From assembly GCA_030599585.1 (NCBI GenBank), contig JAUVNS010000001.1, forward strand, positions 160,001 through 224,000: DNA of 64,000 nucleotides, written 5' to 3'. Below are positions 20,870-24,642 of this stretch, piece after piece. The position numbers were made by a program, and so were the translations under genes. Below the pieces are notes generated by a model. That model was given only the letters and a program-made list of their open reading frames with translations. It was not told where the DNA came from and did not search any database. This DNA comes from Promethearchaeota archaeon (GTDB lineage: Archaea > Asgardarchaeota > Lokiarchaeia > Sigyniarchaeales > SOKP01). Numbering within the stretch: the stretch's first letter is position 1; every line of letters starts with the position of its first letter.

Positions 20870-21136
20870 TTACGAGCTAAGTAGCTGAAAGAGAATCGAA
20901 GCGTGAGGGATATAGAATTGATCCTTCACTTTTATTACGACGGTATGAAAATACTCAGCTAAACCTAAGAAACCTCGAATAACTGATTCGTCTTCCTCAA
21001 ATTTAAAAGTGATTTTTGCTATAGCCGCACTAGCACTGAAGTTGGCTTTTTCATAGACTCTTTCGTCAATTAAGGGGATTTTAAGCTCATTAACAATTTC
21101 ATATACTCGCTTGATGAAGAGTTCTCTCTTGGGAAT
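20870..21136 (-). CDS. Small uncharacterised protein (88 aa), probable ATT start; not in ORF track
   Basis: Open frame (M)PKRELFIKRVYEIVNELKIPLIDERVYEKANFSASAAIAKITFKFEEDESVIRGFLGLAEYFHTVVIKVKDQFYIPHASILFQLLSS*; AGGTG SD-like motif upstream; no upstream in-frame ATG/GTG/TTG before a stop. Confidence 0.65.
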   Translation of the reverse strand: MPKRELFIKRVYEIVNELKIPLIDERVYEKANFSASAAIAKITFKFEEDESVIRGFLGLAEYFHTVVIKVKDQFYIPHASILFQLLSS

Positions 21137-21394: not shown

Positions 21395-22084
21395 TTGGTT
21401 TCGAAGGAATATAAGAAGATAGAGAGGGTCGTTAATTTTATGAAAAAGGGCTTAACCTCTCTAAGCGATGACTTAGAAGATACTGTTAAAGGGATTAATG
21501 ATTTTGTAAAATCGTTAAACAAAGCCTTGAAAGATTTGAAAGATGTTTCTATTGAACCAGAATTAAAAACTGTTAGTACATCCTCTAAAAAAGTGATAGC
21601 AACTTCGGATGGTATGGCTAAAACTGCAGCAGCGAGCACTTTATTTAGTTTACTAAGCGGTAGCCCTGCTCCAGTACAAGAAATGCCTCCAACTACTGCA
21701 GCTACTGTATCTCCAACAGTAGGTGGGCCTCCTAAAGCTCCTGGAAAGGGTCCTCCAAAAAGACCTGCATCGGGCGCACCTCCAAAAGCACCAAGTAAAG
21801 GTGGACCACCTAAACGAACTAATTTACCTCCAGCACCAAAATTACCCCCCAGTTCTGGTGGTGTATCTGCTCAACCTCCTGTTTCAGGAACTGTGCAAAC
21901 GCCCTCATTCGCTAAGAGACCGATACCGCCAAAAGCACCATCAACAGGCGTTCCATCTCGACCGCCCGGAACTCCTACGGGTCCACCTGCAGCAGCACCT
22001 CAAGCAGGAGGGGGTTTAAGTTCTCTCCGAGATGAAATGTTAGAGGAGTTAAATCGTTTAAAGAAGATTATGAGAGGAGATTAG
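21395..22084 (+). CDS. Coiled-coil + proline-rich protein with C-terminal WH2/VASP-like helix (candidate actin regulator)
   Basis: N-terminal heptads; PPKxP repeats; C-terminus GGGLSSLRDEMLEELNRLKKIMRGD; GGAGG SD upstream of TTG start. Confidence 0.75.
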   Translation: MVSKEYKKIERVVNFMKKGLTSLSDDLEDTVKGINDFVKSLNKALKDLKDVSIEPELKTVSTSSKKVIATSDGMAKTAAASTLFSLLSGSPAPVQEMPPTTAATVSPTVGGPPKAPGKGPPKRPASGAPPKAPSKGGPPKRTNLPPAPKLPPSSGGVSAQPPVSGTVQTPSFAKRPIPPKAPSTGVPSRPPGTPTGPPAAAPQAGGGLSSLRDEMLEELNRLKKIMRGD

Positions 22085-22214
22085 TAACTAACTCCTTGTT
22101 TTTTATCTAATACTTATTTTTATACCGTTTTAACCTCGATTTTTACATCTTATAAAATTCATTACTATTAATTCAAAACATTTTTAATCATCGATTATGA
22201 ACTATTTAGTATAG

Positions 22215-22961
22215 ATGGATAAACACAATACTATCATCTGCGAAAACAATATACCAATTGTAGTTCCTAAACGCATAATGGTACTTGCTGGTCATCCAGA
22301 CGATGAAATCATATCTTGTGGTGGCACTCTTCTAAAATACCAAGCTTTCGGATCACAAATAATCGTTGTAGTTGCGACGAGTGGTGTTGGCGGATATGCA
22401 AAAAATAATCAAAAAGAAGGAATTATAAATCAAAGAAAACATGAGCTTGATTCTGTTCGATCAGCGTTGAAGTGTGAAATCATAGAATTAGATTTTCCTG
22501 ATATGGACATAAATAGAGAAAAAATCTCTAAGATAACAAATCTTATTAGAGATATTCAACCTCATGTTGTATTATTGCCTCATCATTCTGATTTTCATCG
22601 AGTGCATCGAAACTTGGCCTTAATTTCAAGAGAAGCAATTTACCATTGTTCGACGGGTAAAGCTTATGGAGGATATGAAAGAAACTGGACTCCATTAGGT
22701 GTGTATTATTACGAAGGACCTTCGTGTAAATTTCAATATATTGAGAGTTCTGTTTTTGTTATAGTAGATATCGAAGAATTTTGGGAGAAGAAAAAAGAGA
22801 TATTTAATATCGCCTACCTTACTCAGAAAGAAGTTTTAGGAAGAGTCATGGAGTGGGCAGAAGATACTGCGATTTTAAGAGGTAACGAAATAAATTCGTC
22901 GTATGGAGAAGCGTATATTCCTGAAACTACCTATACCCCACTTAAGCTTTTATTAGTATAG
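22215..22961 (+). CDS. PIG-L/LmbE family N-deacetylase
   Basis: AGHPDDE metal motif, ATSG, RKHE, HHSDFHRVH variant of HxDH. Confidence 0.88.
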   Translation: MDKHNTIICENNIPIVVPKRIMVLAGHPDDEIISCGGTLLKYQAFGSQIIVVVATSGVGGYAKNNQKEGIINQRKHELDSVRSALKCEIIELDFPDMDINREKISKITNLIRDIQPHVVLLPHHSDFHRVHRNLALISREAIYHCSTGKAYGGYERNWTPLGVYYYEGPSCKFQYIESSVFVIVDIEEFWEKKKEIFNIAYLTQKEVLGRVMEWAEDTAILRGNEINSSYGEAYIPETTYTPLKLLLV

Positions 22962-23029
22962 AATAGATATAAAAAGATTAAACATGTTTATTAAATAAGC
23001 GAATAAATTGCTAAAATTAATCTGACATT

Positions 23030-24145
23030 ATGGGCAATCTTACTGTTGTTTTAGACATTGGACAGTTTTCAGCTAAAGCGGGTTTTGCTGGTGAAGATAT
23101 GCCAAGCCAAGTATTCTTCACCATCGTAGGAAAGCCAAAATATAGACAAATTGATTACGAATATGGAATGGTTCGAAAAGACGACTATTATGTAGGAGAT
23201 GAGATTCAATCTTTAGGGTTATACAAAGTGCTTCACCCTATTAATAAAGGCATAATACAAGACTGGGTTTCATTCGGAAAAATAATTGATTATATCTTCT
23301 ATAATTTAAGAGTCGACCCTAGTTTAGTAAATGTCTTATTTGCCGTCCATCCTTTGTTTCCTCATAATGATTTAAAAAAGCTATTTGAATTATTTTTGGA
23401 ACATTATCAATGTAATGCTTTTTATCCGGTATTAGATTCTATGCTCACTTTGTATGCAGGAGGATTTCGAACAGGTTTGGTAATAGAGATCGGAGATAGT
23501 CTGACAAGAATAGTCCCAATCTATGAAGGTTATAAACTAGATCACGCAATTAGAATTCTTGAAATTGGCGGAAGAACTCTCACAAAATTTATGGAAAAAA
23601 TATTAGGTGCAAAAGGGTATTCGTCAGATTCTTCAATAAGAAGAGAACTCGTCAGGGCCTTAAAGGAAAAAGCATGTTTTGTCTCCCTCGATTACAAAGA
23701 AGATTTGAAGAGAGTTGAACAATATGAAAAAGAATATTCCTTGCCGGATGGCTCAACGATTTCTTTAGCTAGAGAGAGATTCGAAGTTCCGGAATTATTA
23801 TTTAGCCCTTCAATGGAATTAGAGGAAAAATCTCTCCCAGAAGCAATTATGGATGTAATTGAAATGTGTGACTTAGATGTCCGTCCAGATTTACTAAACA
23901 ATATTTTTTTGTCGGGAGGGTCTTCGATGTTTCCAAATCTCAAGTCTCGAATCTATCAAGAATTAGAAATTGAATTGGCGAGGCGTAAAAAGAAAAGCCA
24001 AGTCATCAAAATAATTGCACCCCGGGAAAGAATTTTCTCAGTTTGGGTAGGAGGATCGATTTTAGCAATGATTCCCGAATTCGAGCAGAACTGGATAACC
24101 AGAGCAAAATATTTTACTGATGGTATTCCTGAAGATATTCTATAA
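23030..24145 (+). CDS. Actin family protein (divergent Asgard actin / actin-related protein)
   Basis: VVLDIGQFSAKAGFAGED, YVGDE, IVPIYEGY, IGGRTLT, KEKACFVSLDY, YSLPDG, ERFEVPELLF, LSGGSSMFP, ERIFSVWVGGSILA. Confidence 0.95.
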   Translation: MGNLTVVLDIGQFSAKAGFAGEDMPSQVFFTIVGKPKYRQIDYEYGMVRKDDYYVGDEIQSLGLYKVLHPINKGIIQDWVSFGKIIDYIFYNLRVDPSLVNVLFAVHPLFPHNDLKKLFELFLEHYQCNAFYPVLDSMLTLYAGGFRTGLVIEIGDSLTRIVPIYEGYKLDHAIRILEIGGRTLTKFMEKILGAKGYSSDSSIRRELVRALKEKACFVSLDYKEDLKRVEQYEKEYSLPDGSTISLARERFEVPELLFSPSMELEEKSLPEAIMDVIEMCDLDVRPDLLNNIFLSGGSSMFPNLKSRIYQELEIELARRKKKSQVIKIIAPRERIFSVWVGGSILAMIPEFEQNWITRAKYFTDGIPEDIL

Positions 24146-24270: not shown

Positions 24271-24642
24271 ATGAAAATGGAAGAACCTCAGAATACTAGT
24301 TTTGAACAAACCAAAGTTCTAAAAAAATATTACAAACCTAACTACTCTCAATTATTTAATAAGATAAAAGACATTAAAACTCCGGTAAAAAATGAAATAT
24401 TAATGTCTTTACTTGATGGGAATTGGCATACTGAATTAGATTTAATAAGAGTAGCTAAGCAGAAAATGAGATATTTGGGAGCTGTTACCTTAGGGACAAT
24501 GATTCACTCTTTAAATCACCATCTAAAGAACGATTACCTTGAAAAGAAAATGATAAACGGAAAGCTATCTTACAGAATCTCAGATAATTATGTTGGGCTA
24601 ACTCGAGCGGCATACAACAAATATAGGTTTAAAATGGACTAA
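24271..24642 (+). CDS. Putative winged-helix protein
   Basis: EILMSLLDGNWHTELDLIR helix-turn-helix, YLEKKMINGKLSYRI wing. Confidence 0.6.
   Translation: MKMEEPQNTSFEQTKVLKKYYKPNYSQLFNKIKDIKTPVKNEILMSLLDGNWHTELDLIRVAKQKMRYLGAVTLGTMIHSLNHHLKNDYLEKKMINGKLSYRISDNYVGLTRAAYNKYRFKMD

Follow-up and report, generated by a model that had tools for sequence, protein, structure and literature searches.

Described systems with a terminal or tethered binding element

The WASP/WAVE/WIP and Ena/VASP proteins begin with a helical head that oligomerises, continue with a Pro-rich region and end in a basic amphipathic helix bearing an LKK-hydrophobic motif. In the WH2 element, a short amphipathic helix is followed by a longer linker and then by LKK[TV] in extended conformation. 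ZipA, one of the membrane tethers of cytoskeletal polymers, has an N-terminal transmembrane (TM) segment and a long flexible P/Q-rich linker, and binds its partner with a small distal element, in this case a globular domain into which a peptide fits. The tails of ESCRT-III proteins bear MIM1 and MIM2 motifs, with IST1 having both, and they present an L-P-x-x-P sequence followed by a terminal E-hydrophobic-x-x-E-L-x-basic-L-K helix a few residues from the C-terminus. Cultured Asgard archaea possess both actin-filled protrusions and ESCRT machinery; a protein tying actin or ESCRT to the Asgard membrane is not known, and the actin regulators named in the literature are mainly profilins and gelsolins. 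In Pyrobaculum, the crenactin regulator arcadin-2 is encoded beside an actin-family gene and touches its partner solely through a conserved C-terminal helix that follows a flexible region (PDB 5LY3, PMC5173319). This 17-residue helix binds the crenactin groove at 31 nM (PMC5173319). The contact with crenactin is made largely by a tryptophan.

A proline-rich protein with a conserved terminal helix

The window analysed here is a stretch of 64,000 nt from an Asgard archaeal genome, and it contains a gene, referred to as gene X, whose family recalls these systems in its parts. Its features are the following:

21395..22084, plus strand: gene X, 229 aa with a TTG start, TM-less member of a pan-Asgard family with a proline arm and a putative docking helix
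21404..21544, plus strand: head helix of gene X (residues 4-50), with a heptad-like pattern and almost no variation within Lokiarchaeia
21617..21655, plus strand: short amphipathic helix (residues 75-87) of the conserved A-A-x-T-L-F-x-L-L-x-G type
21662..22009, plus strand: disordered Pro-rich arm, with a repeat number that varies between homologues
21824..21850, plus strand: invariant LPPAPKLPP (residues 144-152), with an L-P-x-x-P core as in Asgard ESCRT-III tails
22016..22072, plus strand: putative C-terminal docking helix (residues 208-226), the sole part common to membrane-anchored forms in other Asgard families

The reading frame is a real gene, as more than 200 homologues (50-98% identity) exclude a chance origin. 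These homologues begin at the same residue, and a GGAGG sequence lies 12 nt upstream of the TTG. The N-terminal 90 and the C-terminal 25 residues are the most conserved parts, being almost invariant among homologues, and the motifs are single-copy within the genome. An earlier note on this DNA, made from the letters alone, had described an N-terminal helix, a Pro-rich region with PPKAP/PPKRP repeats and a terminal helix, and AlphaFold2 and the homologues agree with that description. In particular, AlphaFold2 run with two alignments predicts a helix at residues 4-50 (pLDDT 80-95), a short helix at 75-87 and a helix at 208-226 (pLDDT about 90), with everything else disordered. In the monomer models the three helices are unpacked against one another, as expected for a tethered peptide.

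The head helix is probably an oligomerising or partner-binding head; a Pfam search of the head returned generic coiled-coil noise only, and residues 75-87 do not form a TM segment (maximum KD19 0.77). The PPKAP/PPKRP units occupy about residues 90-205, where the prolines come in PP/PxxP form with no long runs, as the same note had remarked. In the terminal helix, hydrophobic residues stand at positions 208, 211, 215, 216, 219, 222, 225 and 226 and cover more than one face, while the polar residues R212, E214 and K223 are invariant. The LKKI motif lies inside the one continuous predicted helix, with two residues between L219 and L222; conservation extends to L222 and K223, and a hydrophobic residue always occupies position 225, while position 224 varies across the family (K, S, G, E, T, H, A). 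Sequence profile searches of the PDB, performed with the whole gene X family and with the tail separately, gave no match.

A pan-Asgard family and its anchors

A profile made from the last 40 residues of gene X finds matches in 229 of the 301 sampled Asgard genomes and in 75 of the 90 high-quality ones. Judged by sequence, gene X belongs to an undescribed pan-Asgard family with a near-unchanging terminal helix on a floppy Pro-rich arm. A family restricted to Loki and Odin lineages had been suggested by the N-terminal profile alone and was overturned by these phylum-wide matches. The proposed tether family would be defined by an amphipathic helix of roughly 20 residues at the extreme C-terminus, carried on a disordered Pro-rich arm of 100-150 residues; in gene X the terminal helix fits the tail profile and a long disordered Pro-rich arm precedes it. 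The earlier note had named loss of conservation of this helix as grounds for giving up its proposal, and the helix turns out to be conserved even across the phylum. Within one family it is invariant, while the actin paralogue of the same genomes falls to 60% identity. Among only 24 representative clusters searched, no eukaryotic homologue of gene X was found.

The carriers in six archaeal families (f6, f7, f9, f15, f17 and f29) start with an N-terminal TM segment (KD19 2.2-3.35), which is followed by a helical region and a Pro-rich arm before the same terminal helix, and in family f24 this helix stands at the end of polytopic membrane proteins. Alignment of soluble and TM forms with hhalign is limited to the last 32 columns (Prob 98.4%, E 6e-15), and the same program detects no relation between the gene X head and the TM forms, so that the heads are unrelated. 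The helix is also found within a Zn-ribbon protein that is unrelated and about 160 aa long, and in a second protein of 256 aa, and thus behaves as a portable module. These second matches of the tail profile had been considered as ESCRT-III proteins, a candidate that was dropped once sister genomes showed the Zn-ribbon family and the 256-aa protein instead. The TM forms adjoin a gene for ribose-5-phosphate isomerase in six of seven loci, which is uninformative on function. The TM-less form occurs in Lokiarchaeia and a few other lineages, small-genome Odin-like ones included.

Taken as a mechanism, the arm would be fixed at its other end by a membrane anchor in seven sampled Asgard families, either by an N-terminal TM segment or, in one family, by a polytopic domain. 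The basic residues that follow the N-terminal TM segment would place the arm in the cytoplasm according to the positive-inside rule, which is the sole basis for this topology. In Lokiarchaeia and the few other lineages the anchor would be replaced by a soluble head made of the long helix and the short amphipathic helix. The TM forms of the six families resemble ZipA in their N-terminal TM segment, long flexible linker and small distal binding element; however, the tether here itself carries the peptide, whereas ZipA ends in the domain that receives one, and gene X of the window is without a TM segment. We favour, at slightly better than even confidence, a reading in which gene X represents, in Lokiarchaeia and without a TM segment, a pan-Asgard tether that offers a docking helix to a conserved partner. 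Most likely, the terminal helix inserts into a groove on a conserved cytosolic protein that nearly all Asgard archaea possess, and would draw this partner to the membrane or cortex.

Gene Y, companion of the TM-less form

Upstream of gene X and divergent from it lies a small unannotated gene:

about 20870..21136, minus strand: gene Y, 88 aa

In the window, gene Y has ATT where its orthologues have ATG. Across Asgard classes it co-occurs with the TM-less form of gene X and is mostly adjacent to it, in divergent, convergent or tandem orientation depending on the lineage. Among the 301 genomes it was found in f1 (62/68), f2 (6/7), f3, f4, f5 (4/4), f14 (16/19), f21 (6/6) and f23 (3/3), and in no genome of f7 (0/28), f24 (0/21) or f29 (0/11), a distribution that agrees with that of the TM-less form of gene X. 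In an MK-D1-like genome it lies 24 kb from gene X, and in several genomes of the family of that genome the two are on other contigs; in loci of the P0132 type, gene Y was not found within 6 kb of gene X. Gene Y has no Pfam or PDB relative, and hhalign gave no match between it and the TM forms. The soluble head of gene X may work together with the protein of gene Y.

The neighbouring actin paralogue

On the other side of gene X the window contains two co-oriented genes:

22215..22961, plus strand: PIG-L family deacetylase, which is present or absent between gene X and the actin paralogue
23030..24145, plus strand: actin paralogue (Pfam Actin, 298 bits), 43% identical to the canonical Lokiactin of the genome

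Gene X is thus co-oriented with an actin homologue and lies two genes upstream of it, as first noted from the letters. In the earlier note this arrangement had led to the proposal of an NPF- or VASP-like factor acting on the neighbouring actin, with synteny as one of its checks. The synteny is present in part: gene X lies 0.1-2 kb upstream of the paralogue in all nine genera of one family, but in the sister family the two are 44-71 kb apart or on separate contigs, and the paralogue instead adjoins PIG-L, with the stop codon of one gene overlapping the start codon of the other, or a Ras-like GTPase gene. The link of PIG-L to the paralogue is older than that of gene X. Moreover, orthologues of the paralogue are confined to f1 and f2, while gene X-type proteins are found phylum-wide, including lineages without it. 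The gaps between gene X and the following genes measure 130-230 nt, T-runs follow the gene X stop codon (the T-rich tract after 22084 that had been pointed out before), and PIG-L is variably interposed, which together indicate that gene X and the paralogue are separate transcription units. The proximity of gene X to an actin gene is an accident of gene order at the level of one family and no conserved module, and gene X does not serve the neighbouring paralogue as a dedicated regulator. As the adjacency is kept in only one archaeal family, gene X is better described as a probable general tether than as a demonstrated actin-assembly factor.

That gene X might be a WASP- or VASP-like nucleation or elongation factor specific to this paralogue is suggested by the co-oriented adjacency within one family and by the succession of head, Pro-rich arm and terminal helix, superficially like that of WAVE or VASP. 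The distribution of the two genes, with distances, partners and transcription units as just described, has already largely refuted this reading, and the paralogue itself has changed nucleotide-loop and hydrolysis residues. In addition, gene X differs from the WASP/WAVE/WIP and Ena/VASP proteins as it is without WH2, EVH1 and VASP_tetra matches, long proline runs and an acidic tail, and it has no acidic or Trp Arp2/3-binding tail. Indeed, WH2 (PF02205) gave no match at E<=1 with the whole protein and none at E<=10 with 27 tail peptides, bearing in mind that HMMER filters may drop very weak matches, and Pfam searches of the whole protein, the head and the 27 tail peptides detected neither EVH1 nor VASP_tetra, the tail peptides giving no VASP_tetra match at E<=10 either. 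The proposals that the terminal helix and LKKI form a compressed WH2, and that the helix resembles the Ena/VASP tetramerisation helix, thus lose their footing, the former also because LKKI sits within a continuous predicted helix with no linker. All in all, such a specific factor is highly improbable.

Candidate partners of the terminal helix

A broader actin reading takes canonical Lokiactin as the partner, with the terminal helix in its hydrophobic (barbed-end) groove, so that the family would link actin to the membrane or deliver monomers. It draws on the nine-genus adjacency to the actin paralogue, on a two-domain gelsolin encoded 3 kb upstream of a distant family member, and on the 96-99% identity of canonical Lokiactin across the nine-genus family, which parallels the constancy of the helix. 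Family f22, which has ESCRT-III and only a divergent actin (54%), shows the helix in none of seven genomes, and the vacancy for an Asgard actin-membrane linker, with mainly profilins and gelsolins named so far, also speaks for it. The arcadin-2/crenactin pair provides a precedent (PMC5173319); however, gene X has no tryptophan, its family has a Pro-rich arm, a membrane anchor in many lineages and a non-conserved actin linkage, and there is no evidence of homology to arcadin-2, as the PDB profile searches, which covered 5LY3 chains with at least 20 residues, found no match. Other observations argue against a Lokiactin partner: no WH2 or VASP profile matches, LKKI follows the preceding hydrophobic residue after two residues within a continuous helix although the WH2 linker is longer, and the second basic residue of LKKI is not conserved. 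Linkage to actin, profilin or gelsolin genes is absent from the sister-family, Odin-like, f14, f21, f23 and TM-form loci, and f18 has Lokiactin and is mostly without the helix. For the profilins of Loki and Odin, no binding to polyproline is reported (PMC8410842), and the text of the Lokiactin co-immunoprecipitation study names no such protein among those enriched. Lokiactin is an unlikely partner; should this doubtful reading hold, the pan-Asgard family, membrane-anchored in most lineages and assisted by gene Y in Lokiarchaeia, would be the missing actin-membrane link and a pre-eukaryotic equivalent of groove binders of the WH2 or arcadin-2 type.

The ESCRT alternative had been raised from the outset: the tail would address the Vps4 MIT domain twice, through the terminal helix as a MIM1-like ligand and through LPPAPKLPP as a MIM2-like one. 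With such an IST1-like double motif as a Vps4-recruiting signal, the protein would bring Vps4 or ESCRT to a membrane site. The alternative receives modest quantitative support. A weight matrix that draws only on the C-terminal ends of 14 Asgard ESCRT-III proteins ranks gene X 8th among the 6250 ORF ends of this genome, only 45 of 1.5 million windows genome-wide reach its score, and most Loki, Odin-like and f23 members fall in the top 0.1-0.3%. L-P-x-x-P precedes the helix in Asgard ESCRT-III tails too, the hexapeptide ELNRLK is common to gene X and the ESCRT-IIIB of the same family at an equal distance from the C-terminus, a membrane anchor suits a recruiter, and Vps4 is the sole strong MIT protein in the genome (contig C22). 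On the other hand, the non-ESCRT ORFs that score above gene X are mostly ordinary enzymes (PLP decarboxylase, GGACT-family cyclotransferase, DUF169), so that the specificity of the matrix is low and the likeness suggestive only, and the divergent members, namely the P0132 type and some of f14, have low scores. Gene X has no Pfam match to the Snf7 (PF03357) helical-hairpin core, no overall homology to the 14 ESCRT-III proteins (hhalign Prob 3.5%), a helix longer and more hydrophobic than theirs, and a spacer of about 55 residues between L-P-x-x-P and helix, as opposed to about 10 in ESCRT-III; it is never beside ESCRT genes in the loci examined, and the second tail-profile matches are not ESCRT-III. 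A parallel change of the gene X and ESCRT-IIIB tails, hinted at by one genome, failed across nine genera. Recruitment of Vps4 is a minority possibility. Self-association of the terminal helix, as a VASP-tetramerisation-like coiled coil that cross-links arms into a mesh or condensate, appears quite improbable: hydrophobic residues on more than one face, a head that is heptad-like as well and the chance of hetero-oligomers with other proteins bearing the same helix are compatible with it, but there is no VASP_tetra match, the invariance of R212, E214 and K223 and of the helix across the phylum better fits a fixed external binding site, and the helices are unpacked in the models, which are of the monomer only. 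For the favoured tether, there is about an even chance that the partner is something other than Lokiactin, Vps4/ESCRT or the helix itself.

Significance for Asgard cell biology

The family is single-copy and occurs in roughly three out of four Asgard genomes sampled, with an end helix of 20 residues that hardly varies phylum-wide. Whichever protein the partner proves to be, its identity would reveal how the cortex is organised in Asgard cells, and if it were actin, the family would bear on the origin of the groove-binding actin regulators of eukaryotes.

Architecture of X and its homologues

The genes that form the subject of this analysis are:

~20870..21136, minus strand: Y, an open frame of 88 aa just upstream of X
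21395..22084, plus strand: X, 229 aa, with a TTG start
23030..24145, plus strand: actin paralogue (Pfam Actin, 298 bits), downstream of X
24271..24642, plus strand: 123-aa protein without a Pfam match, 3' of the actin paralogue

The X frame is preceded by a GGAGG 12 nt 5' of its start, and T-runs follow its stop codon. A homologue search retrieved 207 proteins with 50-98% identity, all from Lokiarchaeia-type metagenome bins, which are without exception annotated as hypothetical and in none of which a Pfam domain was found. In an alignment of 28 homologues, three stretches hardly vary: residues 1-90, the nonapeptide LPPAPKLPP (144-152) together with a P-x-F-A-K-R-P element, and the 25 C-terminal residues; the number of PPKAP-type repeats differs. 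AlphaFold2, run with two different alignments, predicts three isolated helices (4-50, 75-87 and 208-226) with no tertiary packing (pTM 0.21-0.22). The motifs of X are unique within the 4.85-Mb genome. Thus, the description of X in the earlier note, as a coiled coil, a PPKAP/PPKRP arm and a terminal helix, is borne out in every detail by the ORF, the alignment, the AlphaFold2 models and the uniqueness of the motifs. A 549-aa homologue (P0124) carries an additional N-terminal transmembrane (TM) segment, and its frame continues into a TIR-like domain; its source is a single short Logan contig of 2.1 kb, so that an error of assembly or gene calling may underlie it. A divergent homologue (locus L025, the contig of P0137) lies amid several small GTPase genes (Arf/Ras/Roc, RagA-like) and a gene for a VWA protein.

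Distribution of the terminal helix

A profile of the head of X matched only in the families of Lokiarchaeia (Asgard families are designated here by f-numbers) and in f14, with weak matches in the small-genome Odin-like f5 and in f23; inspection of a very weak match in f21 showed the complete architecture, down to the same tail. A second profile, built from the final 40 residues, matched in 229 of 301 sampled Asgard genomes, including 27/28 in f7, 48/76 in f9, 21/21 in f24, 10/11 in f29 and 6/6 in f21. In f6, f7, f9, f15, f17 and f29 the carriers are proteins of 225-340 aa with a clear N-terminal TM segment (KD19 of 2.2-3.35 vs 0.77 for X), after which come basic residues, a region of helix and a Pro-rich arm that leads to the same terminal helix. 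The carriers in f24 are tandem polytopic membrane proteins, of which the tail forms the C-terminus; at one such locus (L133, genome G220) a Pro-rich arm and the helix close each of two proteins of ~560 aa. Soluble and TM forms can be aligned only over the last 32 columns, where the match is strong (Prob 98.4%, E 6e-15), and sister genomes carry the same helix inside a ~160-aa Zn-ribbon protein and terminally in a 256-aa one. On these sequence grounds the family is pan-Asgard and mostly membrane-anchored, and, since the helix recurs in otherwise unrelated carriers, it is a portable, strongly constrained module. No description of this family was found in the literature.

The ~160-aa family (L140, L142 and L143) combines an internal L-R-D-E-M-L...L-K helix with a four-Cys Zn-ribbon-like domain C-terminal to it; the genome studied here yielded no copy. 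TM forms adjoin ribose-5-phosphate isomerase A on either strand in 6 of 7 loci (L127-L134; f6, f7, f9, f15 and f17), an adjacency that is uninformative about function.

Gene neighbours of X

The genome has four actin-family genes, of which the actin paralogue ranks second-best; canonical Lokiactin, 43% identical to it, is encoded on another contig. In the first phosphate loop of the paralogue D-I-G-Q-F replaces D-N-G-T-G, and the positions aligned with Q137 and H161 of actin are D and R, changes that make it Arp-like. Orthologues at E<=1e-100 are present in 61/68 genomes of f1, the family in which X adjoins the paralogue, and in 6/7 of its sister family f2, with none at this threshold elsewhere in the 301-genome sample. 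The synteny raised by the earlier note is kept in all nine f1 genera, where X lies on the same strand 0.1-2 kb upstream of the paralogue, with or without an intervening PIG-L gene, but it is lost in f2: there, 44 kb separate the two in a closed 4.4-Mb genome and 71 kb in a second one, and four further genomes have them on separate contigs. The 5' neighbour of the f2 paralogue is either PIG-L, with overlapping stop and start and within a longer same-strand gene run, or a Ras-like GTPase. X is therefore only a family-level neighbour of the paralogue, and PIG-L is the older companion. At all f1 loci examined the paralogue is followed by the 123-aa protein (46-74% identity), but in f2 it is not.

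X and Y are linked in different classes and in different orientations, far more strongly than X is linked to actin. Y has 424 homologues, all hypothetical, and no Pfam or PDB relative. In the 301-genome sample it is present in f1 (62/68), f2 (6/7), f3, f4, f5 (4/4), f14 (16/19), f21 (6/6), f23 (3/3) and f10 (3/5) and absent from f7, f24 and f29, a pattern that coincides with that of the TM-less form of X. The two genes are neighbours, divergent in f1, convergent in f5, f14, f21, f23 and f33, and in tandem in f3 and f4. Since Y is absent where a TM anchor is present and the helix is found everywhere, we infer that it is the soluble head of X, not the terminal helix, that Y serves. In the window Y has ATT (21134-21136) where its orthologues have ATG, and the open frame offers no ATG, GTG or TTG start farther 5'. 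A non-canonical start codon may be in use, the gene may have been lost recently, or the ATT may be a sequencing error.

Candidate partners of the helix

The earlier note had read the tail as a compressed WH2 or a VASP tetramerisation helix. Neither profile matches X (E<=1, whole protein) or 27 tail peptides (E<=10), the whole family and the tail, used as profiles against PDB, retrieved nothing relevant, and LKKI lies within one continuous predicted helix. Compared profile to profile with 14 Asgard ESCRT-III proteins, X scored a probability of 3.5%. X thus belongs to neither the WH2 nor the VASP nor the ESCRT-III family, and its proposed role as an NPF/VASP-like factor on the neighbouring actin, to which it is linked at the f1 level, finds no support.

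Binding of the helix to the ESCRT/Vps4 system is unlikely, although several features point to it. Both ESCRT-III proteins of the genome end in helices of X-like pattern, the hexapeptide ELNRLK is common to X and the same-family ESCRT-IIIB at the same position, and the L-P-x-x-P upstream of the helix has a counterpart in ESCRT-III tails. A weight matrix from the tails of the 14 ESCRT-III proteins, X excluded, ranked X 8th of 6250 ORF ends and scored most Loki, Odin-like and f23 members similarly, but not the divergent ones, and the non-ESCRT ORFs above X are mostly ordinary enzymes. Moreover, X is not linked to ESCRT genes in the loci examined, and co-variation suspected between its tail and that of ESCRT-IIIB was not borne out. 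Actin, at a similarly low probability, is favoured by the adjacency in f1, by a gelsolin gene 3 kb from a distant X member, by the precedent of arcadin-2 (PMC5173319) and by one family, f22, which has ESCRT-III but whose sole actin is divergent and in which the helix is missing. Against it, the actin reading has no profile support in X, the linkage was not found outside f1, Loki and Odin profilins are reported not to bind polyproline (PMC8410842), and the text of a Lokiactin co-IP study mentions no X-type protein among the hits. Self-association is improbable, and some other partner has about an even chance.

Among the ORF ends that scored above X on the tail matrix are those of a 180-aa 2TM-domain protein (contig C8, 203204-203746, minus strand) and a 107-aa ORF (contig C30, 20614-20937, minus strand); they are possibly further Vps4 ligands or chance hits.

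Collectively, the idea of a docking helix on a tether is supported in general terms, and a portable helix under such constraint is characteristic of an element that docks onto a conserved partner.
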